A DNA stretch of 64,000 bases from Raillietiella orientalis (GCA_036172245.1 JAYWIR010000084.1:1-64000), one strand, 5' to 3'; positions 1-64,000 are shown, numbered from the stretch's first letter. A program made the numbers and translations. Notes: generated by a model not told the origin, from the sequence alone.

Positions 1-420
1 CAGTTGTTCCTCTGATCAGGCAGCTTCTTCCAGTCAATAAATACAATGAACTCTTAGAGACAGTCTGGGAAGGAGTGACCCTTTCCAAACCTTCCTTTCA
101 TTGGCGAAGGCAGCACCCTCAGGCAGTACCACGTCCAGCATTCAGCCACTGTAGCGATCCAAGTCTCGGAGTCTCTGCAAGAGAACGCAGAGATTTTGTG
201 CTACTAATGAGCTGAATTTAAGTCGATCGATAAAATGGCAATAACGATAAGGAACGGACTGTCGTTTGAAGTCTAATGCTCCTGGTGTTTTGTGACCAAC
301 AACAAATTCTGATCCATTGGGCAACGTAGGGACACAGCAAGGCCAATACTTTCTAGTAGGGCAACAGGAAACATAAAGTCCGATACGAAATGTTTTGTGT
401 AGGCATGATTCTAGACACCA
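1..420 (-). other. Putative degenerate (-)RNA virus L polymerase fragment; 1-161 duplicates 42961-43121
   Basis: Minus frame reads WYCLRVLPSPMKGRFGKGHSFPDCL*EFIVFIDWKKLP; upstream VSRIMPTQNISYRTL. Resembles the post-GDN 'SR....N...T' and 'LP..LGG....PD' region of L proteins (recalled, weak). Confidence 0.3.
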
Positions 421-2659
421 CACCAGAAGGAACGCTAACTGTGATGTCTCTAAAAATAGGGCTGTAAGTTCTTGAAATCACGAGAAAGATGTCGCTGAGA
501 ATTGTAAAAAGCGAGCCACTTTGTCACGTAGAAAGGGTACAAGTGTACTTATGTGATATAAAAACTGTAGGTACGGGGCGAAAGCTCCGAATTCAGAGAT
601 TGATGTACAGAAAACAAGAACCGTCATCGAGTAAATGCTTACAATGAAGGATCTCATTTGTCAACTAAAAGCAGTTTACCATCGAGGTCATGAATATATC
701 CTTCATGTTGAGAATCGTATTTAGCAAAGCAGTGATAATCCCAATTTCGTACTAATGGATTAGAAGGATAGTAATGGCTTTATTGCTTTGATCATTGGGG
801 TTGCACGTGGAAGAAACTCTGAATAACTTTGCTGCAGAAGAAATTGTTCACTAGATGACTGTTAATAAAATGGGTTGGAAACAATTTGGTGCTATTAAAG
901 GAACAGCACAAAGGGAACAAAGTAGCACAGTACAACACGTAGTATTTTCTGACTTGTAAAATAAGTGACCTAAATCATTTTTCTGTTCATCACTGTTTGA
1001 TTATCAGTTACCATTGGTTGATGCATGAGACATGCTGGTTTTACCAGACATGAATGATTTAAAAATCCCAAAGAGTAACGATGATTTCAACTTTCAAATG
1101 GAAATTATTAGGTTCTTGACAGCATCTAAAGAAGGTGGGCGTCCTCCTGGATTGCTTTTTCAATTCCTTTTGCAGAGGAATATTTGGCGTCGCTGTTGTA
1201 TCGGACTCCTTTGCCATGAGGAAGTAGAAACACAATCGTCCGAGGCAGCGAGCAATCCAGGCGATCGCACGAAGGCAACTATTTGCAAGAAGGTTTTTCT
1301 AGAAACTCTTGAGTCGCGACAGCCACGTAGAATGCTAATAACTGCAAGATGTGCTTTCATTCAACGACATAATGAAACAGTTACTCGAGGAAATTATACT
1401 CGATGGTGGTCTATCTAAACGGAAAAAATCGTGGATTGAGAAAAAGGAAATGCCCCGTCAGTTATAGTAACTGTCGACAGAGCGGAGTGCTTGTTCTGGA
1501 CAAAGGGCCACTGACTGCCAGGATTCCAGGAACTGATTAGGGCTTAGCGGCTGGGCGTGTGATTGTGCGCGTAGAAAGACAGCTTTTCCATAGACTACGG
1601 GTCGGCCCAAAATGCCTCGACCTTTGGTCTTCAGTAAACCGGATGTCTGAGGTCCTTACAACATGATAAGTGTAAGTGTCCTGAAATTCGATGTCAACCC
1701 GGATAGCAGTTGAAACACACTCAATTGGTAGTCAAAAGGACGAGTTCTTTCAGCCGCAAAAATGAATGGAAAGAGAAACCGTGCACAGTAATGCCAGAGG
1801 GAACCAACGAACTGAATTGCGAACGGAATGTGAGTCAACTTGCGAGCTTCACAACCCCGCTTCCTTTCGCTCCCCTTCCGTGACAGCGCGACTGAGGAAG
1901 ATAAGATTGATCTCGAGGACGCGGGATAGCATCAGACGATCAACAAGAAAAAGGAAAGCGCGCTTGCCACCACGGCAGAGGACGGCAGCAGGGGCGGATA
2001 TGATAGTGCAAGTGAACGCTCGGACGCTTTTCCGCGATCGGTAAAGTCGCCAAAACTGTCAACGCAGTGACCGATTCGGAGAGCCACGGAGCAACTATCA
2101 CTGCGCAAGACAGCGCTTCTGCCTTTTACAAGTCTTGCAGACGTGGTCTGGAAGACTTGTAAAGCTTCGCGTTTATAAAGGGTTCTTTCTTTTTGCTTGT
2201 GTTGGTGAGGAGAGTGTAGCGGTGGTTTCATGGAGGCAATGCCAAAAAACATCTCTACAAACGCATACGGACGTGACTTTCCTCCCGAAGGATGCGGGAT
2301 TAGAGGAGGTTACATCTTCGCAAGAATCATTCTCCCAGAACGAGAAGCGCTCCGGATCCAGGTGCTGTCAAGGATACCTTAGGAGTGGAAGTATCCTGGC
2401 CTACGAGGTCAAGGGATACGTCCTGTCCCTGCTTAAGCGAGTAGACCGAGTTCCTGCGTAGCGCGATCTTTCGCGCATGAGCTGCGAAAGCTCCACGCCT
2501 CCCTGGAGAATCCCGTGGGGCTCACGTTCTTGTGTGAGAGTCAGGTCGCAGAACTTACCTGAAAAGATGCAAGTCTTGCGCAATGCCTGCTGAGAAAACC
2601 TCGATCACCATCAAGGTGATAGAGGTTTTTTGTAATCACAATTTAATGGAGACCCATAT

Positions 2660-4030
2660 TTTAATGGAGACCTTCGGGATCACCAGTTCGCAGACCGGCG
2701 TGGACCACCACAGCAGCAGAGAGGAGGGCGCAAACAGAAAGAAAAAAAGGAAAACAAAAATAAAAATAAATATTCTTTGGGAAGTGAGGGAAGGGATCAC
2801 GTTCTGCTGGTGGCGGTCCTATCCATCCTCTGTAGGATGCCGGCAAGTCTTGCTGGCTGCCCCTGTACGGGTGGGGTCATCGCGTTTTATCCTCATGAAG
2901 CGGACGGCAAGGTGGATGGCATTTCTGTCGCTGGGTCCACCTGTTGCTTTACTCCTGCAGCGACGATCCCGCGTAGGCAGCACGAGGCTGCAAAAGAGGC
3001 CGCTAGCCGAAGGGCTTTGAGAACGAACAGGGGTTTTAAAGCGTCCCTGAAGTTGACTCCGGGGACTCCCAGGGCAGTGGTAAATCGTCTCTCGAGAGGC
3101 AGAGGGCAACACAGTCCACTAACGGGTGAAGGAGGGGTTTACGTTCCTCGCACCTGACAGCTGGCCTCCTCACACACCCAAGTAAGTGATGACGGCTCAA
3201 GCGTTGCAAGGGAGGCCCTAGTGTAGCCCCAGCAGCACCGACTGCTTCCACTTCAAAGGGAGAACGAGGGTGTCCATGAGCACCGGGGGTCATTTCAGGT
3301 GCTCTAGCTCGCCCCAGATCGAGAGTCCATGGTGTGGTGTACTCGGGTCACAGCGTCTGTGAGCTGGCCCGTATTCCACCTCTCCAATCCTTTCTCCTTT
3401 CCAGAGATGGTCACTGCAGCCTCCCATTTCGCCGCGACGCTGCTGCTCAGGTGTTCCCTGAGGGAGGACAGAGCTGCGAAGAAAAAGGTTCTTCCTGCCC
3501 ATGAGCTTTTTCCAGTATCCTCCTGGATCTCTCGGAGCGTGCAGCTGTTGTTGCGCACGAAGAGGTGACAGCGCACCTGTTCCGTGCGTTGCTCCTGGCT
3601 CATCGTCCACGTGAGAACGGTTTCCTGTGGCTAGGCACTACTATCCGCAAGGTAGCAGAAGATCCATGCCGTGTTCTTCCTCGTCTGCGTGGCCACCCGT
3701 CGAAGCTGCATTCAAGTGGCAGATGTTGCGGCAACAAAGTTCAAGGTAGGCTGCGTTAGAAGTGATCTGCTCGACGAGGAGGTGTGCAGGGTCGCACCTG
3801 GCGGTGCTTCACAATTTCGCCACGTGAACAAGTATTTTCCATCGGAGCTGAAGCTCTAGCCGCTTCAGCGTTAGTAAGCCAAGACGTCCGTTTCGACGCG
3901 GAACGCACAAGTCCTTCAGGCAGATTCAAAGCCTTCCTTCGTCCCAAAGAGCGATTATTCGGAGGTCCATTCGTCTGCAGAGACGTTTTTTCTCTATGGC
4001 AAGTTAGTCTTGCCGGAGTGGGCCACTATG
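2660..4030 (-). mobile_element. L1/Tx1-clade non-LTR retrotransposon, 3' fragment (post-RT region, zf-RVT, T-rich 3' UTR)
   Basis: VRCEERKPLLHPLVDCVAL zf-RVT-like motif; similar to the copies at 44 kb, 46.5 kb and 48 kb; U-rich UTR with the family hairpin at 2682-2699. Confidence 0.75.
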
Positions 4031-4174
4031 TAGAACTTCACTAGGGTCTTCCCCTTTTCCGTGTTATTTGCTTGCTCGCCTCCCCATTCGACGAATACCC
4101 GCTGCAGCGACTACTTAAAACAACCTCGTGGGGAGCTTCAAGTTCCCAAACTCGCCTTAAAGACTTGGTTTTGA

Positions 4175-4900
4175 CACCCGGGGACGCCGGGGCGTTCATT
4201 TTGATAAACAACAAACATGTGTAGGGCCATCGGCCCTGAAACGTCCGAAAGAGTTTGGAACTTTCCGAGTCACCGGCACGCAGGCCGGTGAGGTACGACT
4301 CGGCAGTCGAGGGGGAGGGGGCGAACAAAAACACTATTAACAAAAAAATTGGAAGTTTAGGAAAGAGATCGCATCCTTCTGGAGGGCGTCCTCTGCATCC
4401 TTTCAAGGATGCCGGCAAGTTCCATTGAGTATGCCCTAGATGGGACCATCTTGCTGCCTTCCTCGGGATGCGCATACAGAAGCAGATGGCATGTCTATCG
4501 TGCCATCCTCCTCTTGCGTAGCTCCAGGCCTCCACCATCCTACGTAGGCAGCAAAGAGTTGTTGAAGCTGTGGCAGGGGAAAGGACTTCTCGCACGAAGA
4601 GGCACTTGAAAACGTCTCTGGGGCGATCCGTTTGTGCAACTAGTGCCGTTACGAATCGCAACCGCGAGGGCAGGAGGGCAGCATAGTCTATGAGCAGGTG
4701 AGAGAGGGATTTCCGTTCCCCCGCATCTGACAAATTTCGGGTCCACAGCCCTCCGGGTACAGTGAGATCGGCGGACTTTGCTGGGGAGACTCCAGTGCTA
4801 CACTAGAAATGCCGACTCCAGCTTCTTCAGGAGGATGGTCCTACCAGGGGTTGCTCCAGAACTTCGGCACAAGGGCAAGTGTCCAGAACTGGAGGGATGC
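4175..4900 (-). mobile_element. L1/Tx1-clade 3' fragment with intact 3' terminus
   Basis: GERKSLSHLLIDYAAL...ARWSHL C-terminus, T-rich UTR, terminal AATGAACGCCCCGGCGTCCCCGGGTG. Confidence 0.8.
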
Positions 4901-6040: not shown

Positions 6041-6164
6041 GAGGAAGAAAACCAGTATTGAGTACGTAGTTCTTGACAGTTTCACTCCTCGAGAGTTTTT
6101 TCTAGATGCGGTCAAAGTTCACCGTTCCTTGCCTTTTGCTCTTTCAAATGGCACCAGCAGTGCC

Positions 6165-8557
6165 TTTAAGAGCACTCACGAAGCTTCCTAAGTATTTATC
6201 GCGCAGGTACTTGCAGATATTATGAGCGCAAGTGTTCGGCAGAGTGGAACAGATCTTCAGAGAGTCAGTGGAAATCGTCCAGGATCTTCCTCCTTACAGC
6301 TGCACCGTCAAACTCTTTCTCTATCAGCTCGGCATATATCGGAAACTGTTAGTGGAAAACTCTTGATTTGATGATTATGTCCAGTTCGAAGTTTGTCGTA
6401 CATGCAGCGAGCTCGTGACGGCTTTTGATGAAGTCATGGCAAAGAAAAGTGCGATCTCTCATCTTTTCCATCATCCTTTCGAGTTCGTTCTTGCATTGCA
6501 TCATCGCAGTCGGTTCCTCGCAGTCTTCGAGGGACAGCACATTCTGTTGAGCTCAAGTAGACTCCAGTAAAGTAGAAATTCAGCGCGTACTGTATGATAA
6601 ATTTGGTTGCAAGTTTACGTGTGGACTCCAGGAACGAGTCGTACTCGCGGTGACCTGACCATTCACGACTCAGTCCCGGAGTTTTGATGACGACATCCAC
6701 TGGTGTTTCAATATTGCAGTTGAGTATGTTGATGTCCGGGTCATACTCCAGAAGAGTAAGGACAACTACTCCAAACACAGGAGCAATATGGAGTGCTGTT
6801 TCTCGAAAATAATACTTAGCATTGACATCAGCATTGTACTCCAGAAGAAGCTTCGTAGTTGGGTTCCATCCATGTTTGGTAGCTATGTGGAGAGGAGTGA
6901 TGCCGTCCTTGTCGCAAGCATTCCCATTTGCTTTGAAATCCAGAAGGAGCTGTACAATTCTTTCATTAGACTTTGAGGAAGCGATGGGAAGCGCAGTTTT
7001 TCCATCCTCCCTCTTGCCGTCCACGTCAACGCCACCATGCAATAGAAGCACCACCATTGCAGTGTTTCCATGCATGGTTGCCGTATGAAGACACGTCGTT
7101 CCGTGCATGTCCTTCGAATTGATGCAGGCGCCGTGATCTAGAAGAAGTTTTACCATTTCGCAGTTTGATTTATCGGAGGCGATGAGGAGAGCCGTTGGGC
7201 CATCTTCCCTTTGCGTGTTCACTTCGCTCTTGTAATCTAGGAGCATCTTCAGTATTCCAAGTTGTCTTTCGAGGCAGCTTCATGAAGCGGAGTTGCTCCG
7301 TCCTTTTTCTTGGCTGTCACGGCATCGTTGTGATCCAAGAGAAGTTGCGTCACTTGCGCTCTCCCGTGCTCGACAGCCAACTGGAGGCAGGTGGTCCCGG
7401 CTTTGTTTCTTGCGTTCGCGTCTGCGCTGTAGATCAGAATAAGTTCCACGATGTCTTCGTCCGCTTCCCTTCCCAGAGGAGCTTGATCACCCCAGCATTC
7501 TCGAACCTGGTAGCCATCAGAAGAGTCGTGTCTCCGTCCTGGTTCTTGGCATCCGCATCTGCGTTGCAACTCAGGAGAAGCTTCGCTATTTCACTTTTTT
7601 TTTCGGATGCAAAATGGAGAGCTGTCGTTCTGCTCCAGGCCGCAGCATCCACATCAGCTCTCGAATCCAAGAGAAGCTTTATTATGCCTGCCCCCTTGAA
7701 TGCCGTGGCGATGTGGAGAGGGGTTGCTCCACCGTCATCCTTCGCGTCCACTTCGGCACCGTAGTCCAGAAAAGCTTGACCAATCTCTCGTGCCCTTTGT
7801 GCGAAGCTATGTGGAGTGCGTTCGCTCCATTGATGTACTCGGGCAAAGTAAGTTTGGTCCTGCATCTGGGATCGTCGTCCAGCGGAAACCGATCCCGAAA
7901 TGATCCCTGAACAAAGAGGACATTAGTCAGGTGATCCGACTCCCACATTCCTCTAGAAATTGCAGGGGAACCGGGAAACAGTTTCATTCTTAGAGCGTCT
8001 ATTAAATAAAAAAGCCCACCGTCGTCCATGCACACGGTATGGTTGACATTTGCCCCGTGTTTTGAAAGTTCCTTGACAATCGTGAGAGATCCACTTTCAG
8101 CGGCTACATGCAGAGGAGTCATCCCATTTGCATCCATGATGTGGACACCTGCACCGTTCCTGAAAAGCAAACCGATAATGTTCTCATTCCTGAGCAGTGC
8201 TGCGATGTGGAGCGATGTGGCTCCGTACGGAGTTCGAGCAAAAACGTTGGAGCCTTTCCGCAGAAGCACGTCGGCGTCGTCAGCGTCTTCGAGAATGACA
8301 GTAAAGTGGAGCGGCCCCAAAGATTTCTGATATTTCAAGTCCTTGTTTACCCTCCAGCTCCTGACGAGTATGCTGGCTGCTTCGTAGGGGTCATTTTTGA
8401 AAGAGTCACGTAGCGATAGGCAGCACTTCTTCCACGTATCAGAGTACTTCATTCCGAGCAGCAGCATGATGCCTTCCAACTTTTCCTCCAAGTTCTCTTC
8501 TTCAATTGCACGCACCAACCGCTCGCAGATTCGAAACCGTCGCACAGATGGGATCAT
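6165..8557 (-). pseudogene. Ankyrin-repeat protein with C-terminal PRANC/F-box-like domain; frameshifted, no introns evident
   Basis: About 12-14 TPLH/TALH ankyrin repeats spread over four overlapping ORFs (8557-6434). C-terminus reads CKNELERM...*QFPIYAELIEKEF...RRKILD, then after a frameshift LPNTCAHNICKYLRDKYL (PRANC F-box-like motif). Confidence 0.85.
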
Positions 8558-9419
8558 TGGAGCAATCTACTGCAACCCTTGAACAAGAAACCGTCCTTCA
8601 GCACCAACTTGCTTCACGAGGTGGCGGACAAGGTCTGACAGTCCGTTTTACCGAGAAACTCTGATTCAGCTATTCGGGAATACGTAACGACTCCCGGTGG
8701 GGTTTTATCACATTTCTGGGGGGATCCTTACTCATTCTTGAAGGTTTTCTCATTGGCTTTCTGGAAGGCCTGCTTTGGTTTCAGATTTACAGCTGTGCTC
8801 AGATGAAAATAGAATCAGTTGCCGACACCGTTTCCTAAAAGCAAAAGTCTGGAACGAAAGGAGAAACAAGGAAACCTTTTGAAATTTCATCTCTTGCCAT
8901 CGTGTACGGTTTCCAACGTCTGCGTAAAAGCACGAAGACATGCGATCATCTTTTCAAGAACGCTTCTCGAACGACCAACACATAACGCTGAGAGGATTCG
9001 ACGACATCCGCAAATCTGCGGTTGTCAATAGAATGGATTGTTTTTTTTCTCTTATCGTGAACAGCACACTTCGAACCATCAAATGGAGAGAGAGACTGCA
9101 GAAGACAAAGAAGACCACATGGTGTGACGCTTACGCGACTCTCTTGGATTTAGGCTGGAGAGGCACGATTCTGCCTAAGAAGGAGGCTACTGAATTGTGG
9201 GAACGGAAAAGCTATCCCTCTTTTGGTACCCCTCACGCTCAAATGGAGTTCATGTGCGCTGAGCAACGCAGGCTTGTTTACTGCACTGTCGTTGTAGGTC
9301 AATTTTCTTCCAGCAATTGACCCTTTGCATTCCAAGCGTTTGTTGACACGAACGACCATCAGCTCCAGCACGCTTTCGCAATCAAAAATCTGAGAAGTAA
9401 TGGCTTTGCTCTGATAAGG

Positions 9420-9800
9420 AAGAAATGATGAATGTTCCTTCGTCTCTGCGATCATTCTCTTTGCAAAGCTGTTGGTTTCTTCTTCGAGGATCCGCTTGAC
9501 AAGCTCTCTTGTGAAAAATGAGTAGAAATGTTCTGTTGGTTCCACAATCATGGATGCAAACTGTGGTCGTGTGACCATGGGCGATACTGTGAAATGAATC
9601 CTTTTTGGAATCCTTCTTCTATCCGTTCTATCGACCCATCCATGTTCTCTTCCGAAAGAGTTTTTACTCTCAATAATTCCGATTCTCCGCCGCCATTTTC
9701 CAATGATTTTGTTAACGCTAGAACGAATTCCAGAATCATCATCACTTGCACTATCTTCAGATGCAACATCAGTTAAATGATCATCAACTAGGTAATAAAT
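9420..9800 (-). mobile_element. piggyBac-type (PGBD) transposase N-terminal remnant
   Basis: Acidic N-terminus followed by PTEHFYSFFTRELVKRILEEETNSFAKRMI, matching the piggyBac 'P...F..FF..E....I..ETN.YA' motif. DDD core absent. Confidence 0.65.
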
Positions 9801-12800
9801 GAAGTTCTTCTTCACTTTCACACAATTCAAAATTTTCATAACTCCTCTCCTCTTTATCCATCTTTAGTAAATCGCTTTGCAACTGACTGATGGCAGTGGG
9901 AAAGTAGAAACTTTATGTAGAAACTTTTACACAAAAGCCGAGGTCCTGTTCGAAAACAAACTTTAATAAATCAGAATTGCAACCCCACACTGTACAAAGT
10001 CTGCAGAGCAGTGATCTGCAGAAGGGAACTGTGAGCGATCACGGCACTCGTTTGCACTCACTTTGCATGTCAACGAAAGGGTGGCGCATTTTGGTCTGCA
10101 ATGTGAATAATACATAACTCTGACCCCTATTCTAACTCATCGACACGATGCATGTCTTCTCAGCGGAGCCAGTGGATCTGTGGTCTTCATTAGGAATGTT
10201 ACCTCAGAGGAGCCAGTGGAGTGCGAAGGGTTAGAGCGATCAGCCACCCACAAGATCTTGCGAGTTGCGTACACAGAGGGAAAATGGAAAAATCCCTTAA
10301 TTTGCTGGTGGCTGAGCCACAGAGGTGCAGCTCAGGGACGGATGACACTTCCTTGCTTTCCTCGAAAACACGCGGCAGCAGAGGAAGAACACTTTGTAAG
10401 CTAAGCCACTTTCATAGCATTCTGCTTCCTGATCCGGAGAATAGGATCCAAAGAAACATGGGGCGCACCGAAACGCGGCAATGAAAAACACGCAACGTGT
10501 TTCGGATTTTGGGAGGCCATAAATAATCTTCTATTTGCGCCCAACAGCAAATGATTTCTCCAATTCTTGAGGGTGAGCGTCACGCGTGTCAGAAGCCATC
10601 GACGTCCAATGGTTCCCTGCATCTCGTGCTATCCTTCCGTGCCCCGGATCCCCAGACGAGTGATGGCCTTACTTTTCGAAGCAAACACAGAACGACGTGT
10701 CGGGTGCAGGTGGACATTTCGAAGGTAAGGTGCAGGTAATGACTGCTCTCATTCGATTCGGCCCATTCGTGATGGAGGAAATGCAATGTGCAATGATGCG
10801 GCACTGACTTATGATTGTTCGCAGATTGAGGTTTTCGCTCCATACAGACAAGCTCACGAGAAATGATATCCGAAATCGCCTTGAGGACTGGGTTTCCAAG
10901 TGTCAACAGCAATGACAGAAATCTCATTTGCATGATTGACGCCGCCGAAAAGTGTTGGCCTCATAAACTTCTGGTCACACTTGGTCCTTTGGAAGCAATG
11001 GGTGTTGCGAGGGGGGGGCATTTCCTGAGACCGATTCTGGAAACTTCCAGATCATTGACTCCAACGACGTCTTCCCTTAGTATTCTCTTCACTCGGAATA
11101 AGACTCGCATTGATGACTGCATTAGGATCAATATCATCAATTCTAATAACGAATTTATAGTTTGCAAAGTGAGGCGTCCGTAATTGCAAGTAGCTTGCGA
11201 GAGTTGCAAAGTCATCAGCTGAGAAGGTGGTCATCGGTGTGGCGCATCCACGCAAAAGACGTAAAAATCACGTTTGCAATCGGTTGTATCACTGTTCGCC
11301 CGTTGAAATCACTGTTGCCATGCGTATGGCAACACTGATTTTTCAGCGCGTAACTTTAGGAAGGTGCAGGAGCGCGAAGCAACCTAAATTTGTGCTCAAG
11401 TGTCACTGAATTCATGTGTGCCGGGCGTAAAGCAACATTTCCTCCTGCGTCTGTACAGTTTTAAGTGGCAGCGCATGCAACAGGTTGAAACAGCATATGG
11501 CCAGGGTTTGAAAGAGGTGATCTCTGACCTGGTCATTCATTGAGGCTCAGAGCTTCCCACGATATCGGGGCATGTTCAAAGTCGAATCTGTAGGTCGGCG
11601 GGTTGTTTCCTTGGCCTGTTGTCTTTTTAGTCCTCTTCGACGCCACAGGAAATGGCAGGAGCAGACAAGACTTGAAACATCAGTCAGAGCGGAGACAAAT
11701 TCTGATTGGTTCCGCAGACACAGATGGAAAAGGAACTTTGTTTCCTGGTTCATCAGCAAATTTGAGGCGATTGCAAAGGAAGGATAACGTTTTTTTTCTC
11801 CAGCACACACAAAAAAGGCTACAAGCTCCGTCCTAAGGCAAAGTTTCCGCATATGCGTCCTTGTTAAAATTCGAATTAAGTTTTTCCCCCCCCTTTCCCA
11901 TTAGGCCTGCAGAGACGGACACGGAAGGCACCAGCGATGCTCAAGAAGAAAACAGATGCTGTGCCTCTGTGACAGGAGTGATGTTTACACGTCAACCTTT
12001 TCACATCAGCAAGCATCTTCGCTTTTCACCATGTCGTTCGCGATTTATCGAGGCAGCCTGTGATTGGTGACCTTGTTCTTCCTTATACTGCTCTTCAACA
12101 AAATTTCCTGAGGGCTGACATGCCCTGTGATGAGGTTGCTAAGCGAATCCATGCAAATTGCACGTTGGAATGCGAGTTATGGAAGACACGCACTTTCTGT
12201 CCCCATCTAATTTCGATAGTCCACCGTGAAGCCAGCGGAAAGGAAATCAAGGGGAGCTCTCATCAGCACAAATGCAGCAATATTTGGGTACATACAATAC
12301 GAATGCATTTGTCCGCATACTCATCCTCACGCTGCACTTCCATACGAGGGAAGGAAAAAAAAACAGAACTCTCCTGTAGAAATGGGAATCTCTCTGTCCT
12401 TGGGGTTTCCCAGCCCAAATTTCGAAGGCCTTCCTGTTTCCTTCCTCCAAGTCGCAGTGACGTGCCGGGAGAAGCCTTCTCCCGGAGGAAAGCTTCCGCT
12501 TGATGCGTTGAGCGCATCCAAATATCTGTTCTTGCAGACCGGATCTGAGTAAAAGACTCCTCACTGCAATTCTTCCTCAGTACCTGAAGTGAATATTTAT
12601 GTATTGGCCATCAGTATGCATTCGAAATGCGAAGAGACCTTTTGTCGCCGTTTGCTGCGATCGAAAATATTTAACATTCCACCCGGAAGCTGCAGCTCAT
12701 GAGAATGGACGTATTCACAACGTATTCGCCCGTTTAGGGTGGTTTGAAAGATAGAAGTTGCATAGAAGGCAATAGAAGCAGCACCACGTCTTCGAGGTTC

Positions 12801-13910: not shown

Positions 13911-14049
13911 CCATCTATTTAGAATGATCCCATGCGCTTCCTTCCATGGTGCTTTGCAATTTTGAACCAGATCCTTTTGGCTTTTCCGTTCCTTTTTCGG
14001 CAACATCGAATCATCCGGGAAGGCGGGAGGGGGCCGCGAATAAACAAAC

Positions 14050-17220: not shown

Positions 17221-17541
17221 GCCGTCCTGCAACCTGAAATTTTTTTCTGCGATTTCTCAGGGCACCTGTCAATTTGCCATCTGCTCACTGTCTTAATTTC
17301 CAGTAAAGATGTTAGTGCCGTAGCAGGTGGTGTCCTTTGTGCGGTCAAATGGTTCTCCCAGGGCGTTCCAAACTCTCTCTTCAACGGGGAGCGAGCGTGA
17401 ATGGAGTGTCGAAGATGTCACGTTTCCTCCTAGCTCGTGCTGTTGCTCTTCACTCACCTTTGAACTGCATCTTGTTCCAAGGGACTACGGTTTGTGGACA
17501 AGAAGGAGATCCATATGTGTTCCTGCTCTAGGGCAATCATC

Positions 17542-25600: not shown

Positions 25601-25619
25601 TATTCGATATTCCTTTATT

Positions 25620-27560: not shown

Positions 27561-27574
27561 GTGAGCTGGCTTCT

Positions 27575-48392: not shown

Positions 48393-48599
48393 AAAATCGA
48401 ATCCTTTTCGCAAGTCGACTGAGACCTCGAGGGCCCATACGCGCTCCCGCAAGCCACCAGCGGACGTCCGGGGTGCGGACCGCGTTCCTTTCATTCGGTC
48501 TACTTCTCTGGAACTGAAATCAGGTGTTCGCGAAGAGCAGGTTGGCATCGATGCTTCTCCCGGGAACAGCGTAAGTCTGCTCCGGGCTGACGAGACCTT

Positions 48600-50826: not shown

Positions 50827-50829
50827 GTC

Positions 50830-51959: not shown

Positions 51960-52379
51960 TCACCAAAAACCACGGATTATCGGCACTTTCGTGGCAGAGA
52001 CTGTAACTCTTGAAGGATGGCATATTAATATACACTCACCTCTAGAGGCAAGGTAGAGATAGGCAAATAAGTTATCATCACGACGATCATTCGCTACTGG
52101 GCCCACATTTATCCCTATGATATTTTGCAGTACTGATCCGCTGCTTAAGTGATGGATTTGCATAATATTATCATTTGGATTGCGCCACTCTGCAACTCTA
52201 TCCATGATTTCTGGAAGCTCAATTGGTGGTACTGAAGGTTTAGTAGAGGAAATTCTGGGATTTCTTCTAGAACCTGCACGAGTATGATTTGCAGGAGGCG
52301 AGTATCCGGGTCGGATCGGACAAAAGATACACGTCTTGACAAATTGAAGTAGCGCTCTAAACGCTTTTGCTAGTATCAC
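51960..52379 (-). other. Unknown protein fragment (WRNPNDN family), copy 1, virus-like by context
   Basis: EWRNPNDN..SGSVLQNIIGIN.GP..DRRDD..AYLYLASRGECIL, homologous to 62629-62886. Confidence 0.5.
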
Positions 52380-52539
52380 TGATAATTACTGAACCTTTAA
52401 AGCAAGTCAATAACTATTGAGTCATCGATACAGTAACAGTGTGTCCTCTAATCTCTGGATGCTCTGACTGTGAGTAGCAAAGAGGCTTTCTGTGCCGTTC
52501 GCTTGACGCTTTCAACCGTGTCAAGCGGAAACAGTTCAC

Positions 52540-52989: not shown

Positions 52990-54030
52990 GTGGAGTTTTC
53001 GTTGGGAAATTCACACCCAAGAGGTAATACTCAGTATACTCAGTAACCCTCTCACTACACACTGCACTCAGTCAGGTGGGGTGACATGGTCAACGTAGAG
53101 AGGGGATACATAGCCCGGACGTAAGTACCCAGTCGCCCTAGGAACAGGTTGGCCATAGTATCCTCAAATTGTGCTCTCTCTTCACGTGTTAAGTAACTAG
53201 CACCCATGTGATACCTGGCTGGGTCTTTCAATATGGAATGGTACACTGGGCCTATGGAGTGGAATTCATCTATCCTTGGACAGTACACTGCTACAGCTGA
53301 GTATGAGAGCCTTCTTGCACTTTCATATGCGATAGCAAATCGGTGCGTGCCAGCTGGGGTAGATGCAAAGCGTAATTTGGCATCAGGTGCGAGAGACTCC
53401 TTAGCGTGTAATATTCATTCAGAGAAGGCACATTTTTGTCGGCAACAAGTTCTGAATGTCGGCTTTGTGCAAAACATACAGACAGGGTGCATAATGACCA
53501 AGCTGATGGGTTACATTCGTAATCAGACTCGCATCTGCCTCCGGAAAATATACTTTTATTACCTTTGCTGGATAACCGGCTCCAAGTTCATTTCTTGTTG
53601 TTACACCTACGTGTCAATTACACAACCACCAGGAGGCCTTTGTGGCAACATATTCCGAGCAATGTCATTATTTTGTGAGCTAGCGATTACACCGGTCGCT
53701 TGTCAGCTCTACACTTCGTTGACTAAAATACCAGTCACCATCAGGTACATCTGTACCATGACGCTCATATGTTTCCAGTAGCCCGTAGCTATAGAGTGCA
53801 TGCAGTCCATTGATGAAGTATTTCTTATGTAATAGGCTCTCGCTATCGTGCGTGTTTAAGTACCACGCACATGATGTTGTGTATTGCACCTTTCATCATC
53901 ATTTCACGTTGCACGTAGAAAACAGTTGTTGCTCTTGGGTAAGCCGCGCATCAGATCCTGTTGTGATCCCAACATCGCCATCAAGTGCTGGATAAACTCT
54001 GCGTTGGCGTGCAGCATGACTGCATCTTCT
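52990..54030 (-). pseudogene. EVE nucleoprotein-like family, copy B (near full length)
   Basis: GITTGSDARL, INGLHALYSYG, KASWWLCN*HVG, PAGTHRFAIAYESARRL, YCPR, RYHMGASYLT, FLGRLGTY..STLTMSPH. Confidence 0.7.
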
Positions 54031-54929: not shown

Positions 54930-55140
54930 TGGTGTATTCCTCACCTGTGGAAGGAATAGGCAAAGTGGGAGGAGGCCTCGTATATCCGCTTTGGACAAAA
55001 CGTAGAGCGTTCTGGTGTAGTGTCCCAACTGGTACGCGATTGTGATTAGGGTTGAACGCAGCGGCAGTTTGTGGTGTTGGGTCACATTGCCCGCTTCAGT
55101 TGCCGTCATGCTGCAATGGTTCCTATCAATTGCTTGTGTA
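54930..55140 (-). pseudogene. EVE nucleoprotein-like family, short fragment F
   Basis: IAYQLGHYTRTLYVLSKADIRG aligns with AHQMGHHLSTCHTLRRAGISG of copy A. Confidence 0.5.
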
Positions 55141-55199: not shown

Positions 55200-56270
55200 T
55201 GGAACTAATCACAACACCAGATGTCCTCTTGGGTACTGCTTTGACAGCTGTAATGGACACATAAACGACCTTGGGAACAGATAGACAAAACGAATCCCAC
55301 TCTGAAACGTAATGTTCTTTTGATTCGATAACGGAACGTGTGTGGAGGTGGGCAAAGTGTCGATCAAGGGTTCTTTTTTTTTTTTTCTTCTTTTTGTTTG
55401 TCATGAACGACCTAATACGTCCTCATGTCGCATCAGCATCCGTATCATTGAATGCTGCTCCGGCTGTACCGGTAATGTACCCATATGGTGATGTTCAGCA
55501 TAATTTCTGCATAGGACTCCCCGAGGAATGCCATGTTGTCAATTGAAGGGCAATTTCCAGCTTGTGTTCAGTTGAGTAAACGTTTAAATGCCTGAAAAGC
55601 TACTGGGTGCCTGTGCGTTCCAGCCGGAGGTGAAAGAAAGCGCATCATTGCATCCTGCGTAATGTTCATGACATGAGGTGGGGGTCCTACTTTATGACAT
55701 TCCAACAACCTCGAACACCCTTAATGTGCTGCAGTAATTGCCAAGCTGGTGCGCTATTTCCATCCCTCGAACTTCAGGGATTGCCAGTTTGTCCTCCAAA
55801 AGAGTCCTCCAAACTTTAAGTGGCTCTTAACCCCGACTTGGTGATTAGTGAGCCACCAGGAGACTTTGATAGCCATTTTGAGTACCATGCAATTGACTGC
55901 TGTCTGTTTATTTATCAGTGCCAATCCTGCAACACGTTGTGGGTTCCCTGATTCTTTCCAGTCTCCATCGAGTACTAAGATTCATTCACTTTGCGGTAAC
56001 GGATAAGGTCATAGGTGAACAAAGCATAGATCCCGTTAACCATTAGAGTGAGTGATGCGTCCTTCCATGCTTTGGTGTTGCATAGCCATCCGACAGCAAA
56101 TGCAGTTACATTTTTGATTGTAACTCGAGGATCGGACGGAAGATACACTTGGAACTTCCGATCTTCCGGCAACGCCATATCTGTGTCTGTAGTGATGCCC
56201 ACTTCGATATCTCTATCGAGATATGGAAGCTGTGCGGAGAAACGGTCGTAGTTTGTTACTATGTCAGACT
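55200..56270 (-). pseudogene. EVE nucleoprotein-like family, copy C (near full length)
   Basis: NYDRFSAQLP..GITTDTDMALPE, KVSWWLTNHQVG, AHQLGNYCST, PAGTHRHPVAFQAFKRL, FNDTDADAT*GRI. T-run at 55375-55400. Confidence 0.7.
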
Positions 56271-56569: not shown

Positions 56570-56790
56570 AGCGTCCTTTGGTGTGATGTATCCAACCTAT
56601 TGCAGAAGCAGTAACGTTCTTTATGCATCAGTGGGCAAATATATTTTTTATCTTCGGGGAGCGCTACATCCGTCCCAGTAGTCAGTCCAACCCCTATGTT
56701 GTCATCTAAATCTGGCAACAACGCTGAAAATCTGTCGTAATTGGTCTCTGCCTCAGCATCTGATTTGCTCCGACATAGTGGCACTTAGTT
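56570..56790 (-). pseudogene. EVE nucleoprotein-like family, N-terminal fragment D
   Basis: TNYDRFSALLPDLDDNIGVGLTTGTDVALPEDKK. Confidence 0.65.
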
Positions 56791-56944: not shown

Positions 56945-57210
56945 TACGATGATTCTTTCGTATGCATAAACTCTTGGGCAGTACTTCGCATATACTTCGC
57001 CATTATTCTTCTGAAAGCCTGGAAGCACACTGTATGCCTATGGATTCCAGCTGGTGTATATATGAAGCGTAGTCTCGCCCGAATGACTAATCTGCGTGGG
57101 GTAAGACGTTGGAAGGATGGCTGGCATGCCATCTGATGATAATAAGTTTGTAGTGAAAGTACACTGTTGCGACTTTTAACTTATGTTACTTTGCGGGGAG
57201 GTCCATATCT
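56945..57210 (-). pseudogene. EVE nucleoprotein-like family, central fragment E
   Basis: PHAD*SF..ARLRFIYTPAGIHRHTVCFQAFRRI. Confidence 0.65.
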
Positions 57211-57449
57211 TCTTTATACTTGGTTTATAGAGTGATTTCCGTGATTCGCGGGCAGAAGCGTGCATACGGTGAAGAAATCAGACGTTGGAACGCATTAGCC
57301 TACCTCATGCCCGTGGGAGCCCTGCGGGCGCTGACCTCAATTTGGCGTCTGCACCTAATGCCCAAGGTCTTTGAGGCATTTTGTGACTGGGCACGACGCC
57401 TTTTATTCTGATTTTAAAACAAGGTATGGGGATATGTCCAAGCTTATGT

Positions 57450-60353
57450 GCCACAGTTATGACCTTACCCACGCTACCCTATCACCAAGAGCTCGTGGAG
57501 GCGATTCTGCAGTCGACCACCATCAGCAGAGTCACCGACTGGGATAGCATGAAACACCGTGTCCACCTCTTCTGCAACATACAGTTCGGGGACAAGAGAT
57601 TGAGGCAGGAAGCGTATCGGAGGCTGAATATCCAAGATCGCTCCCTCTCGAAATACTGGTAACAGTACGAGAGTCGGTGCGTCTTTTAAAACATCAAGGG
57701 AGAAGTGGGAGTGCTGGAGAAGAGGAATCTGGCAAAGATATCTTCTGTATCCAGTACGATGGTCGTGCAAGGCACGCGTCGGAAGACATCACTGGAGCCT
57801 TCCAGAGGCATTACGTGGAACACTTTCGACGCAGACATCTGTGCAAATCATACGAAAATAGCTTCCTGAAACATCTGGAGAAACGAGTCAATAAAAAGAA
57901 TCAAAAGATGCTGGAAGAGGAAATCTCCGAAGAAGAAGTAAAAGCTGCGTTTAAGGACCTTCGCAAGGATGTGGCAGCAGGCCCTGATAATGTTCCCATC
58001 TCACACTATCAACGGTACCTGCATGCCTACCAGCGTTTGTTCCACCAGCTAACGCTACGCATCAGGTAAGAAGGACGACCACCGCAATCCTTCTACGAGA
58101 GTAGGATGAGGTTGTTGACAAAAGGAGGCGACCTCACGCAGGTCACCCAATGGAGGCCAATCTCGATCCTCAACTCTGATGCCAAGCGGTTGGCGAAGAT
58201 CTGGGCCAACCGCCTAGGCAGAGTCATGCCGAGGCTGATCTCTCCGGTGCACACATGTGCGGTGCCTGAACGCCACATGTCGGACAATATCGAGTGCTCA
58301 AGCTACCATTGGACTCAGCCGATATATCGGCGAGAACTTGGCACTAGTGTTCACTGACATGAAGAAGGCTTTCGATACGGTGGACCATGAGATTCTAGGA
58401 AGACTGGGCCTCCCGGATTACTTCGGCAACTTCGTGAAGATGATACTCGAACAACAACATTTCCACATAAAGATAAACGGGGAAACGACAGCAGCTATTC
58501 GGATGGAACGCAGAGTCCGTCAGGGCGATGCTCTAAGTCCGATGCTGTTCGTCATCTATATGGAGGCCCTCTCGTCGTTCATCGAGAGAACTGGGTACCT
58601 CCAAGGAATCAAAGTGGACAGTCAAAGGCTCGCTCATCTGGCCTACGCAGACGACCTTCTCTTCTTGAAAGGGGAGAGAGACCAGCGAGGCTTTCTGCAT
58701 GTGGTGGGGCTTATGAGTGAAGGATTGGGCTTGAAGATCAATGCCCAGAAGAGCCAGCTTTTGCCCGTCGGAGTTCTGGACCTCTCTACACTCACGATGG
58801 AAGGATTCCGTACGGTGGATCAAATTAAGTACCTGGGTGTCCACATCGGAGATGCTTCGGCATCATAATTACTGTGGAAGGAAATCCTTAGGAGAACAGC
58901 AGAGGAAGGAACGAAGTACATCCGCTTGGACTTCAATATGAAGAGGAGGGCCAATCTTTGAAATGGAGTTCTCCTTCCAAGATACTCTTTGGAGCGGCCT
59001 TCTCTACAATATCCCAGAACACCAAGCGCGAAGTAGAAAAGCTTCAGCGGAGAACCCTCTGAGGAAAATATCGACCGAGAGTACTCCTTAAGCCACTTTG
59101 TCGTCCTAAGGAAGAAGGAGGATCCAGGATGGAGTCTCCTGCATACGCCGTGGACGTCATGGACGTGCGAGAAATCCCGGAAATATCTTCTAACTGGAAC
59201 GACTGGCCGTACGCAACGCACAGGGCGTACTCGCTGTTGTTGAACAACTCGAGAGGCCTGATGACTGCGCTGATCGGCGGAGTTGGTGGATGGTCCACCA
59301 TCGACCCGACGTGGCGAAGGAAACAGCTACTTGTCAAGAAACAACACTTGAAGATTATTCCGAAGAGCAAAGAACTCTGGCAGGAGAAATCCATCCTGGT
59401 TATCCCGTGGATGCTCCCCGTGCAGGATGACACGAGGAGCTGGACACACCAGCGGTCCGCAGTGACTCTGCGCGATACTGAATCCTGGACACGACAACGA
59501 CACCTGCATCATTCTCGGGTGCTTCGTTATGTAGAAAGGATCTCCGGCAGCTTCACACTCAGGATCCGCGAATTGTGGAAAAATCACCGCGACAGCGCAT
59601 GGTCCAGAGTAACGAAGAAGAACATTCTCCAGTTATTAGATGAAGAACAAGATACCACCGCCCTCCAAGATGCCGCCGACCGCTACGCTAGTAGTGGATT
59701 TAATCCACTGGCGATTGGAACAGTCCTCTGGAGAAGTGATTTACCCCCGGACACTCAGGATTACCTCCTCATGCTTTTCCATGGAGGCATCTTGAGTAGT
59801 TCCAGGATGAAGCTCTTCACGGGAATAAGAGAGGAAGAAATCTGCAAAGCGTGTGGTGGAATAGATACAAGACGTCACTTCCTGACCTGCCCCACATTGC
59901 AAGCCGAGTGGACTACCTTGAAAAGGGTCATAGGGCTATCCAACGCCTTCACGATGGAGGTTTTGGCAAGGATGTTTCAGGGAACTGGAACGGTTCCCCG
60001 CCATGATCACCTGGTAAGAGTGACTATCGTCCTTTTCATCACCGCCATTATCGTGCGGTGGTGGAAGGTGAAGACTACTAGGACCACCATATCTCCCATG
60101 GGGATCCTGAAAGGGCTCATCCAGGAGGAGATTGGCATCAGAAACTGCGGACGAGTGCAGGCCTGGAACTACCGAAACATCCTGAGAAGGATTGGAGGAG
60201 GAACCCAGGCCCAAACGACACCCAGGTGATGAAATGCAGTGAACTTTCCAGAGACCCAAAGAAGCAGACTTCAAGTGAACACCAGTGAAAGGAAGTGCAG
60301 TTTTTGTGCAATTTGTATGAATGAGATTGTAGTGTGAATGAAAAAGCAAATAA
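57450..60353 (+). mobile_element. L1/Tx1-clade element of a distinct family, 5'-truncated ORF2 (RT and zf-RVT) with 3' UTR
   Basis: AAGPDNVP, QWRPISILNSDAK, DMKKAFDTVDH, VRQGDALSP, LAYADDL, IKYLGVHI, CKACGGIDTRRHFLTC; stop at 60229; AATAAA near 60348. Confidence 0.92.
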
Positions 60354-60964
60354 ACTTACCCCACCCCTTGTGGGACTTGGGGAAGCACAGTAATGACCTT
60401 ACCTTTAAAGAATATGATACATCATATTTTTTAAAGTACTAACGTGTCGCCAGTACCAGTGTGGTGATTGCAAACCTAATAGTCTGTGGTAACAACACGA
60501 ACATTTCATGTGACAGTTGTTTACTCATCTGAAGGCCTATTCTTCCTCGCAGGCTTTCAATTGGTTACATAAATTTAGTTATTAGGTACCAGTCTTTATC
60601 TGGTAGCCTTGCTCTATAAACACTGCCGATGTGTACAGTGCCATAATAGAATACAGCATATAAGCCCTTGCCTATCAAAGTTTTCATGTCGTTCAAATAT
60701 GTTGATATGCCAATTTACGGTGTGCACAAATTGGTTTTTGGAAGTCGCTTTTGGGGTGAACAAAATGTCTCTGGTAATGACTACCAGTTGTTATGTCCAT
60801 TTCAAGTTCACTATCTAGATCTGTAAGTCGCATATCTATCTGACGAACCTGAGGCGGCCATTATCTAGCTGCAACAAAAGACAGATTTTTTTTTTATGTT
60901 TAGAATTCAGCTTAAGTTGACTATTTAATATAGTTATATCTTAAGCATACTTATCTTGCAGATA

Positions 60965-61215
60965 TTACAAAATAATTGAGCGCTTACGCAGTTTAGGGAC
61001 CACAAGTTCTTTGGGAACAACACTCAACAGTCCGCACCACGGAAAGAGTGACCGCGATTGCACGAGGAGTGTCAGCTCACCCGCCTTCCATCCACCAAGG
61101 AGATTGATTTTTCCTACGATGGTGCAGGAAAACCTCCACCTCGTTGGCAGGCTGCTGTCATCTTTTGCCCTAAGGGCAGACAGCTCTGCGGTGAGGAGTG
61201 TGGCGGTTAGCATCG
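60965..61215 (-). mobile_element. Possible R2-type restriction-like endonuclease C-terminal chip
   Basis: IDA...EV....LGGW pattern, frameshifted. Confidence 0.3.
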
Positions 61216-61239
61216 ATCACTACTTCCAACGGTCATGGC

Positions 61240-61880
61240 AATGCCACAGGGCAAGAACGTCTTCAGGAAGTATTCTCTGGAATGCAGCCCTGGACTCAAC
61301 AGGCTCCTGCCGCCAAGCATTGAAGCTCGTTAGGCGTCAGGAGTTGCACGAGTGAGCTTTCATTACTGAGGCGAGTTGCCTCAGGAGTAAGCCGAATGCC
61401 CTCATCCTGTATCCTCGATGCTCGGCAGCAACGAGAGCAGTCCGCAGGATGTTGCGTGTTTGCTCACACTTCGGAAAAGTCACTGCTTGACGCAGAGTGC
61501 TTGATCTGTCATTTGACACATCAAGCACACACCGACAGTCATTTGACCATGTCATTCGGAACTGCACTAGCAGACCGATTCTCTCCAGCGTCAGGATGCC
61601 ACGAGAGGCTGCCAGGTCTTTGAGGCGAATTCCGGACCTCGCAGGTCTCCAGAGGTCGGTACTTAGCAGGTGCTGAGTCCGCAACTTTGCTTCGTAGGGA
61701 GCGGACAAACAAAGAACGGGAGCGGAGGAGGGGGATTAAGAAAGGGTTCCAGACTGTAGCCCGTTCCACCAAGTAGAAAGAAGTCCGACCGAAGGGAGTT
61801 TTGATGACCATGATCCTGCTTCTATTTACACTCACGCCCGCTCCCCGACGAATCAGCTCTTGGATCGCAAGAGCGATCAA
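61240..61880 (-). mobile_element. L1/Tx1 RT C-terminal fragment
   Basis: ELIRRGAGVSVNRS (compare 29150) and RLKDL..ILTLERI (compare 43830). Confidence 0.7.
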
Positions 61881-62245
61881 CGGAAGGAGGCTGAAGGGAG
61901 AATTAAAGGCAGGGTTCACTGCAAGCTCATCATTATTAGAATCCATGGGTTAGCGTAGAAAAGTTCATAAGGAATGTGTCATTTTTCCAAACATTTTGTG
62001 ATCGAAAGTGGATTTACAATCACATTTATACTTTAACTGTTATAGTATGTAGGGAAGGGGAGTGGATCTTTTTGTCCCAGCGCAGGTAGAAAAGTAGAAA
62101 GGGAAGACATTTTAACTGTGAAATCACACGAAGGACAAAACCAAAAGCATGAGTCACGGCGAGCTGCAGCTGATGGAAAGCGTTAGCAGTTGATGCAATA
62201 TCGTCAGCGTAAGCTAGAAGATATTGCAGTAACAGCTGACAAAGA

Positions 62246-62920
62246 CTAGACCTGAAAACCGAAAGACCTTGCTACCTTGTCAACAGCGATCAGACTCGGT
62301 GATCTCTCATGTTGTTCCAAGAAATCCCATTTTGTGTCTCGTGATTCTTTGCCAAAAGGATTCTTTGCCTGCTTTCTTGTATTCGTTACTCGTATTCTTA
62401 TGACCTTTACGATTTCTCTCAGGAGATACAGATCAGATTCTTGAGTGGGTAGCAGATAGAAGTTATTGAAAGGAAGTAGAAAGGCAAGGTGAGAACAGGG
62501 AAAATCATCAGTCATCACTTTCAAACATAAAGTCGAAAGAAACATCTGGCATCGATCTGATGGGAGATTGAGATTGATCCAAATCAGAGAGAGCATGAGA
62601 GCGATTTGCAGTAGGAATAGGTCGAGGATCACTGACTGACGGGTTTTAAGAATTCTTTCGTGCCATGAGTCATTGTGGCTCTGGCATTGTACCTCATAAG
62701 GATGCTCTCACCGCGAGCAGCCAAGTAGAGGTACGCAAGTGGATCGTCATCTCGCCGGTCGCTGGTCAGTGGACCGAGATTCAAATTTATGCCGATAATA
62801 TGCTGTCGGACAGACCCACTGTTAAAGTGTGTCTGAGTTTGGGTGGGATTATCGTTGGGGTTCCGCCACTCAACCACAGGATCCACGATTAGTGGGGGGA
62901 CTTGGCAGTGGAGGTGGAGC
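62246..62920 (-). other. Unknown protein fragment (WRNPNDN family), copy 2, with a possible frameshifted continuation
   Basis: EWRNPNDN..SGSVRQHIIGIN..GP..DRRDDDPLAYLYLAARGESIL. Confidence 0.5.
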
Positions 62921-62944
62921 GATCCCTAAATGCACGTCTAATGC

Positions 62945-63060
62945 TTAGGCAGGATAAAGTTTTGCTCTAAGACGCCACCAAATGGTAAAAAGCCCTTTTG
63001 CCGGGGACAGATGATCCTTTGTCCCACTGCCCATTCTTTAACTTTCTCTGTGAGGCATTT
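62945..63060 (-). mobile_element. NeSL/Utopia-like RT chip
   Basis: KCLTEKVKEW...CPRQKGFLPFGGVLEQNFIL; shares nucleotide sequence with 52570-52600. Confidence 0.7.
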
Positions 63061-64000
63061 CGGCTACGGTCTACTCGTTTTGATACATTAACGCAGCGCT
63101 CGTGACGCTAATATTGATCTAAGAGTTCTATTTGGATCTGCAGTTTTCGTAGTTTATTCTTCGTTGTCTTATTCCTACTTGTAGGAATAATACAACGAAG
63201 CATTTTACACGGGGGGTAAAAGATCAGCAGATGCGCAATGTCACGACGGACTATAGGGGGTAATTCCAGCTCCACTAGTGGATGTGTGCCTGATCGAAAT
63301 TCTGGAGGGTTGTTTGCTGTTTGGTTTCGGTGCTTTATAATTTGAAACAATTTCTCTCTTTCAAGTGTTCATAAGTAGGCAGCACGATTATGCCACTTAG
63401 TGCGATCCATTCAGTGGGGTTTGATACCTGGCATGGATTGGTAGTATGGAGCTCACCATGGAAGAAACGAGGTCCGTCACTGCTGAACTCTTACTGTGCT
63501 TATAACCGGGAGGTGTATTGGTGTGGACATCAGCTGACTTCAGTAATGGTGGATTGTTAGATTGTAGCAGCATGCTGTAGTATATGCTGACAGTGACATC
63601 AAGAAATCTGTGAAACAGTGCTCTGCTCCACAGATTTGTTACATCCTGAAGTAGTGTTGGTAAGAGAAGCGTTTGAAAGATGGTTTGAATGTTTGAGACA
63701 GAATACAGCTTGGTATGATTAGCATTTTGATGTTTTGATGAAAATTGAGTATGTGGCATTAATTCATGGATCACTGATGATTGGACAGTGTCTGTTACAG
63801 ATTATTGGGGCATTTACTATGACATTATTGTAAATGATGAAAAGATTTAATTAGGGGAGTGCTAATTGACTGTTATGCATGTAAATCCTGAAGGTCATTT
63901 GAACTGTAATTGATTGTTCCGCCTTCTTGTGCATCTTAAATTATCTATTGACGTATAAAGGGTTGGGATTATGGAAAGGGGGTACACAGTCCAACAAAAG

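Follow-up and report, generated by a model that had tools for sequence, protein, structure and literature searches.

Arrays of endogenous viral elements (EVEs) inside clusters that produce PIWI-interacting RNAs (piRNAs) are the foremost candidate for an antiviral memory that arthropods could inherit, and most of the evidence comes from mosquitoes. The flamenco locus of Drosophila is defined by soma-specific transcription of a single strand and by a strong antisense bias in the orientation of its transposable elements (TEs). We know of no RNA-virus EVEs in flamenco. Here, we describe a 64,000-nucleotide stretch of the Raillietiella orientalis assembly (GCA_036172245.1, JAYWIR010000084.1:1-64000; 'the window', with positions counted from its first letter), which a first-pass annotation had likened as a whole to a uni-strand piRNA cluster. 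Only one feature sets this window apart: a viral array of ~8 kb, at 49.7-57.5 kb, in which seven pseudogenised nucleoprotein pieces all point the same way. The window as a whole is a gene-poor stretch of an animal genome, probably that of an invertebrate, riddled with fragments of a long interspersed nuclear element (LINE).

The closest known system is EVE cluster 38 of Aedes aegypti, reported as a 'flamenco-like' unidirectional piRNA cluster of 143 kb (Aguiar 2020, PMC7161354). For this cluster, the same report describes a continuous antisense transcript, phased piRNAs of 24-29 nt with a 5′ uridine (1U), loading onto PIWI and a Ci site (PMC7161354). A second point of reference is the tick Ixodes scapularis, for which 1,774 predicted piRNA clusters totalling 8.1 Mb have been reported; 32 of 143 integrated sequences of non-retroviral RNA viruses (NIRVS) lie inside these clusters, which cover 0.46% of the genome (Russo 2019, PMC6580184). 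According to that work, elements without long terminal repeats (non-LTR) are twofold enriched beside NIRVS, and the piRNAs derived from NIRVS are 25-30 nt long, 90.9% antisense and 1U (PMC6580184). Co-oriented EVE arrays of this kind are often found in piRNA clusters in the arthropods that the two reports cover (PMC7161354, PMC6580184).

Viral nucleoprotein remains at 49.7-57.5 kb

A phmmer search with the minus-strand frame 49667-51187, its stops read as X, against 1.84 billion representative proteins returned 148 matches at E<=0.001, which belong to two unrelated protein families. When all 148 were compared with the window by tblastn, every one of the 314 high-scoring segment pairs (HSPs) lay on the minus strand. 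Profiles of the two families were also run against all 2487 stop-to-stop pieces of at least 15 amino acids (aa), 1255 on the plus strand and 1232 on the minus strand. Every match at E<1 was again on the minus strand, and none of the 1255 plus-strand pieces matched either family at that threshold. The array thus holds two negative-strand RNA virus lineages, one qinvirus-like (six pieces, three of them near full-length) and one bunya/phenui-like (one piece), arranged as follows:

49697-50476, minus strand: T1, bunya/phenui-like nucleocapsid EVE covering profile positions 4-263 of ~316 in a single frame, with one in-frame stop and a truncated 3′ end
50843-51734, minus strand: Q5, near full-length qinvirus-like nucleoprotein EVE covering profile positions 12-319, with four stops and two frameshifts (best piece E 2.9e-25)
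53061-53991, minus strand: Q4, near full-length qinvirus-like nucleoprotein EVE covering profile positions 10-315, with seven stops and one frameshift (best piece E 4.3e-46)
54936-55058, minus strand: Q3, short fragment of a qinvirus-like nucleoprotein, profile positions 161-201 (E 4.2e-05)
55273-56244, minus strand: Q2, near full-length qinvirus-like nucleoprotein EVE, profile positions 4 to ~287 and weakly to 334, with four stops and two frameshifts (E 2.2e-11 and 7.8e-10)
56644-56730, minus strand: Q2a, N-terminal chip of a qinvirus-like nucleoprotein, profile positions 5-33 (E 1.2e-03)
56989-57460, minus strand: Q1, middle fragment of a qinvirus-like nucleoprotein, profile positions 165-248 (E 2.8e-04, 9e-03 and 0.22)

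For the qinvirus-like family, the assignment joins a profile match to a match in fold. None of the 14 family members scanned carries a Pfam domain. An AlphaFold model of the family (mean predicted local distance difference test, pLDDT, 86.5) matches qinvirus-like nucleoproteins in BFVD by Foldseek, with eight matches at E<=0.001 and the top one at 1.5e-23; together with the matches of the window pieces to the family profile, which reach 4.3e-46, this identifies nucleoproteins of the Qinviridae type. All seven stops of Q4 fall within its N-terminal half, and the copy retains 116 stop-free codons with 52.6% identity to one database protein.

The identity of T1 is transitive, because the window's own open reading frame (ORF) reaches no Pfam threshold, with no family found even at E<=5. 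Its top phmmer match is P0002 (1.4e-33), the family profile (A2) matches it at 9e-49 and 4e-07, and 13 of 14 scanned homologues carry Tenui_N (PF05733) above cutoff. In BFVD, the family's AlphaFold2 model (pLDDT 93.7) finds nucleocapsids that are bunyaviral and phenui-related, with 64 matches at E<=0.001 and a top E of 1e-24. The T1 frame gave no match in a word-based protein search and no usable match in the ESM Atlas. T1 lies 367 nt downstream of a member of the qinvirus-like array, in the same orientation. With a single stop in 256 codons, it is much less broken than the qinvirus-like copies; since it also comes from another virus order, T1 is a separate and probably younger event. Some database relatives of the T1 nucleocapsid are found inside very long proteins (P0034, P0029 and P0041). 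P0034, of 1883 aa, combines RdRP_2, Viral_helicase1 and Tenui_N and has the look of a phenui-type nucleocapsid joined to, or annotated in one piece with, a replicase of the plus-strand type.

The nearest database proteins are only 33-45% identical to the viral copies in the window, and profiles built from the database families match them down to E values of 4e-46 (qinvirus-like) and 9e-49 (bunya/phenui-like). Significant similarity to RNA-virus proteins, contiguous host DNA (a LINE and the ankyrin-repeat and RFC1 pseudogenes described below) and disrupted reading frames together mark the pieces as non-retroviral EVEs. Both viral families had escaped the scan of stop-to-stop ORFs with Pfam, an approach that is less sensitive for broken genes. 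Pseudogenes of tick-type metalloproteases, with their H-x-x-G-H motif, had been considered for the repeats at 49.6-57.6 kb and were ruled out by the profile and fold results.

The first-pass annotation had placed viral-like pieces on the minus strand, as borne out here, and had proposed a plus-strand precursor that would yield antisense piRNAs against at least two or three RNA virus lineages. Two co-oriented lineages are present at 49.7-57.5 kb; a third was not found, although no broad viral library was searched. All seven viral pieces being co-oriented, any plus-strand transcript over 49.7-57.5 kb would be antisense to every one of them.

Origin and candidate role of the array

The window was compared with itself at both the DNA and the protein level. 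The near full-length copies Q2, Q4 and Q5 share 37-39% pairwise amino acid identity, yet no DNA-level similarity is detectable among the qinvirus-like copies, and the spacers are likewise without detectable similarity. Across six pairs of 61-185 aligned codons, identity is 0.43-0.57 at first, 0.61-0.71 at second and 0.28-0.34 at third codon positions. Because third positions differ most, the copies must have diverged mostly under selection at the protein level, before they decayed. Neutral decay after a duplication erodes all three positions alike and would not leave this pattern. It is thus the codon positions, and not the stop counts, that discriminate between duplication with neutral decay and separate captures. 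The pattern suggests that the copies diverged under selection either in viruses before capture or during a phase as functional host genes.

These observations are consistent with the following sequence of events. Viral nucleoprotein mRNAs would have been reverse-transcribed and inserted by the retroelement machinery of the host, in several captures from related viruses or, alternatively, in one capture, after which the copies served for a time as functional tandem genes. The captured copies would then have decayed, and a younger plus-sense LINE would have landed at the upstream end of the array. The array may be, or lie in, a small locus whose plus strand is read into piRNAs, and these would be antisense to both virus lineages. 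Two considerations point to the array as a predicted piRNA source, namely the tick base rate (32 of 143 insertions in clusters) and the fact that two unrelated viruses point the same way; the prediction is plausible, and we would rate it at somewhat less than an even prospect. A fuller version would have the array formed by repeated, orientation-selected capture of nucleoprotein mRNAs, from at least three diverged qinvirus-like viruses and a bunya/phenui-like virus, within a small predicted uni-strand piRNA locus that serves as an antiviral memory module against Qinviridae. This version we regard as doubtful.

Several observations weigh against the preferred reading, in which captured genes decayed and the array is a candidate piRNA source. 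In a tree with 25 database representatives, from which Q1 and Q3 were excluded as too short, Q2, Q4 and Q5 are monophyletic with a support of 0.92. The starts of Q5, Q4 and Q2 (51734, 53991 and 56244) are spaced ~2235-2268 nt apart, and monophyly and this ~2.2-kb spacing together are better accounted for by one insertion that was duplicated locally than by separate captures. The qinvirus-like copies carry 1.4-2.4 stops per 100 codons, close to the 1.7 of a neutral simulation (at 62% identity to the ancestor), and duplication is thus not excluded by the number of stops alone. Base rates taken from arthropods may not apply to the host. The Ci-type 9-mer, a motif that itself may not apply to this host, has no exact match in the window, and nine one-mismatch sites were found where 13.2 are expected. 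Finally, ~37 kb of the window is without annotation and no broad viral or TE library was used, so that further elements may have escaped notice on both or either of the strands.

The regularity of the ~2.2-kb interval between the Q5, Q4 and Q2 starts is itself not explained by separate captures.

In a rival account, the array and the LINE debris around it would be neutral heterochromatic relics, and no small RNA of consequence would come from the array. The viral pieces' common orientation would then reflect a shared history of one or two insertions, local duplication and rearrangement, in keeping with the monophyly of the copies (0.92) and their regular spacing. The partial pieces Q1, Q2a and Q3 resemble products of rearrangement, and 111 of the 143 tick NIRVS are reported as not lying fully inside predicted clusters (PMC6580184). 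However, neutral decay after duplication does not yield third codon positions that are saturated (0.28-0.34) beside second positions that still agree at 0.61-0.71, and T1 comes from a different virus order and nonetheless sits 367 nt away in the same orientation. Such an inert relic is a distinct possibility, although we would expect the account to fail.

The codon pattern, being one of purifying selection, would also fit a tandem family of domesticated host genes that descended from one captured nucleoprotein gene, stayed under selection for a long time and was later lost. Monophyly of Q2, Q4 and Q5, their near-constant ~2.2-kb period and the stop-free stretch of Q4, with its 52.6% identity to a database protein, are in line with such a past. 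Every copy is now broken, however, and the partial pieces Q1, Q2a and Q3 are interspersed among the longer ones. Moreover, divergence in viruses before capture would leave the same signature of selection. We consider domestication quite unlikely.

Overall, we lean towards the view that this is a LINE-riddled window with a two-lineage nucleoprotein array that arose by captures followed by decay, and that the array is perhaps a piRNA source while the window is not of flamenco type.

Some features of the array bear on its local history. Q1 adjoins the LINE at 57548-60226 on the plus strand, at its 5′ end, and beyond this LINE, at 60577-60751 on the minus strand, are possible collinear remains of the N-terminal part of Q1. 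With E values of 0.68 and 11, these matches fall short of significance and were left uncounted; they hint that the LINE may have split Q1. A run of 13 adenines on the minus strand (13 thymines on the plus strand) at 55374-55386, ~43 nt past the last solid match of Q2, is the sole homopolymer run of at least eight within 49-58 kb. It may be the remnant of a poly(A) tail, although it comes before the point where the gene would be expected to end.

The spacer that separates Q4 from Q5 holds the first of two copies of a conserved coding-like piece, the second being ~10 kb away; the two share 55-58% amino acid and 64% DNA identity. Neither a Pfam match nor an ESM Atlas match was found for it. Its positions are:

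51963-52385, minus strand: conserved coding-like piece X, first copy
62632-62925, minus strand: conserved coding-like piece X, second copy

Orientation and content of the wider window

The viral pieces are restricted to 49.7-57.5 kb, ~12% of the window. The main TE content is a single old LINE family, with a reverse transcriptase (RT) and a C-terminal CCHC motif, whose copies are 68-72% identical at the DNA level. Its 17 fragments total 15.6 kb, ~24% of the window. In tblastn searches with 17 sense-frame queries, 10 fragments (8,621 bp) were assigned to the plus strand and 7 (7,016 bp) to the minus strand, with no conflicts:

57548-60226, plus strand: best-preserved LINE copy, with the region before the RT, the RT and the C-terminal domain with its CCHC motif, in several frames (RVT_1 1.7e-18 and 4e-04)
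25447-26548, 28823-30624, 31096-31803, 32688-32795, 33814-34314 and 34666-34839, plus strand: LINE fragments (tblastn; CCHC motifs)
17571-17753, 43794-44974 and 47606-48310, plus strand: further LINE fragments (tblastn)
2673-4802, 14004-14789, 16464-17570, 27477-28644, 46377-47129, 48508-48711 and 60992-61859, minus strand: LINE fragments (tblastn)

Tests of orientation separate the array from its surroundings. Seven of seven viral pieces on the minus strand correspond to P=0.016 if each counts as a separate event. When the viral pieces are reduced to two events and joined by the ankyrin-repeat and RFC1 pseudogenes, four of four on the minus strand give P=0.125. The LINE fragments, with 10 of 17 on the plus strand, do not share one orientation (P=0.63), and all features pooled are on the minus strand in 17 of 27 cases (P=0.25). 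The one-strand pattern therefore belongs to the 8-kb viral array and not to the 64-kb window, and because fragments of the main TE family lie in both orientations, the window does not have an architecture of the flamenco type.

Other features found outside the array, all on the minus strand, are the following:

6437-8566, minus strand: ankyrin-repeat pseudogene in four overlapping ORFs, three frames and at least three frameshifts (Ank_2 1.1e-51, 2.9e-12, 2.4e-27 and 5.4e-29)
9153-9863, minus strand: open frame of 237 codons directly upstream of the ankyrin pseudogene (0.026 such ORFs expected locally by chance)
35086-35430, minus strand: RFC1 pseudogene chip from the AAA+ lid region (AAA_lid_RFC1 4e-13; human RFC1, 6vvo_A, 5.1e-19 over 107 residues)

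The first-pass annotation had extended the uni-strand reading to the full 64 kb and listed further minus-strand elements in its favour, with mixed results here. Its RFC1 piece is confirmed. The chip is broken by a stop within it, by a frameshift and by an insert of 14 aa, and is without the stretch from the P-loop to Walker B, and it is thus a pseudogene rather than a gene. An ANK-PRANC gene had been named as well: the ankyrin repeats are there on the minus strand, and a PRANC domain (PF09372) after the repeats was not detected; 6437-7279 matches ankyrin families only and the C-terminal 108 aa match no Pfam family at E<=5. A claimed minus-strand piggyBac was not recovered. The only candidate found is the open frame at 9153-9863, which resembles piggyBac over ~30 aa by eye alone and gave no Pfam family at E<=5, no PDB match at E<=0.1 and no match in a word-based search of longer proteins; the piggyBac domain DDE_Tnp_1_7 was not found by Pfam in any of the 379 ORFs (stop to stop, 70 aa or longer) of the two strands. 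The annotation was right that the LINE family occurs in both orientations, but had set aside these 15.6 kb of unbiased main TE content, and with it the one-strand look of the window is lost. It was also right that the fragments are short and abutting, and they are degenerate as well. Pfam found only ankyrin, RFC1 lid and RVT_1 domains among the 379 ORFs, all in broken frames, and no intact protein-coding gene.

Is the whole window then one flamenco-like predicted piRNA cluster, transcribed from the plus strand and holding an antisense memory of viruses and TEs? All verified features other than LINEs (the seven viral pieces, the ankyrin repeats and RFC1) are indeed on the minus strand, and Aedes cluster 38 as reported provides a precedent (PMC7161354). 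The density of degenerate, abutting fragments (LINE copies 68-72% identical) and the lack of an intact gene by Pfam are as in a uni-strand cluster. However, the LINE fragments that make up the main TE content number 10 on the plus strand against 7 on the minus strand. The best-kept copy runs in the same sense as the proposed precursor and adjoins the viral array. Co-orientation of EVEs holds only within the ~12% of the window that the viral pieces occupy, the conservative count of four of four reaches only P=0.125, PRANC and piggyBac were not found, and no exact Ci-type site was found either. A cluster spanning all 64 kb is therefore very unlikely. Under the preferred reading, with the array as the unit of interest, the ankyrin and RFC1 chips would be ordinary pseudogene debris that shares a strand by happenstance.

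The clade of the LINE bears on one further claim of the annotation, which placed all R2/Utopia chips on the minus strand. The R2 group has an N-terminal zinc-finger/Myb region and a C-terminal restriction-like endonuclease, and L1/Tx1 elements have an N-terminal endonuclease of the APE type. Neither endonuclease type was found in the window by Pfam among the 379 ORFs, and a PDB search with the C-terminal ORF of the LINE was empty. In a PDB search, the best-kept RT, at 58239-58865 on the plus strand, reaches 5.5e-19 with R2 and ~3e-12 with L1 ORF2p, a difference that is not a clade assignment. A plus-strand RT that scores nearer to R2 fits poorly with that claim. RVT_1 was also found at 28823-29221 on the plus strand (2.6e-05), and an RT-like chip with a YADD motif was seen by eye near 61960-62330 on the minus strand, where a PDB search of 61960-62700 gave no match. 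At the edge of a LINE fragment, 17575-17658 and 17711-17794 form an inverted repeat of ~84 nt with ~96% identity and a ~50-nt spacer, resembling a hairpin or a miniature inverted-repeat transposable element (MITE).

The remaining observations concern the rest of the window. The sequence has the properties of eukaryotic DNA, and its GC content ranges from 37 to 57%. No Rfam family or tRNA gene was found in the window, and a scan for tandem repeats gave nothing relevant. Near 36582 on the minus strand lies what we take, by eye and from a likeness to known RFC1 starts, to be a possible RFC1 N-terminus. The C-rich stretch 20743-22036 (GC skew -0.22) holds two overlapping plus-strand open frames of 350 and 300 codons that are rich in proline and serine and have no Pfam match; within it, at 21230-21664, a 216-bp unit occurs twice with 97% identity. 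An artefact of composition or an exon of low complexity is the probable nature of this stretch. A direct repeat at 1-190 and 42961-43152, with 89% identity, belongs to a short repeat family far younger than the LINE copies (68-72%).

Comparison with known systems

What has been found is, for now, an ordinary EVE- and LINE-rich region with a putative functional reading. Like flamenco, it is a gene-poor stretch of degenerate TE fragments; unlike flamenco, its LINE family has no orientation bias, and it contains RNA-virus EVEs, which are not known from flamenco. The viral copies resemble the qinvirus-like and phenui-related nucleoproteins of BFVD in both profile and model matches, but they are broken and lie in host DNA beside LINE, ankyrin and RFC1 debris. 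The array thereby documents past infection of the host lineage by qinvirus-like and phenui-related viruses. No EVE array and no report of EVE-derived piRNAs was found for Qinviridae in the titles and abstracts of the literature searched, which is weak evidence of absence.

With Aedes cluster 38, as far as its report describes it, the locus shares a repeat-rich intergenic setting, EVEs from at least two virus families that neighbour one another on a single coding strand, fragments of retroelements and broken reading frames (PMC7161354). The two differ in scale and in partners. In the mosquito, the TE-EVE hybrids of the 143-kb cluster lie on one strand and the TEs are LTR elements, whereas here the viral part spans ~8 kb, the partner TEs are non-LTR and the LINE pieces point both ways. 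They differ in kind of evidence too, since transcripts and piRNAs were measured for cluster 38 and the present array is known from its sequence alone, in which no Ci-type site was found.

The tick provides the better match in size, the 8-kb array being closer to the small clusters reported for Ixodes than a 64-kb locus would be (PMC6580184). Here as there, EVEs of negative-strand RNA viruses are flanked by non-LTR retrotransposons. The tick NIRVS, in the account given of them, derive mostly from replicases and have measured piRNAs, whereas the window has only nucleoprotein genes, read here from DNA. With the fossils of two negative-strand virus orders and a signature of selection within ~8 kb, the array offers a small, clean test case for the orientation-selected capture of viral genes.

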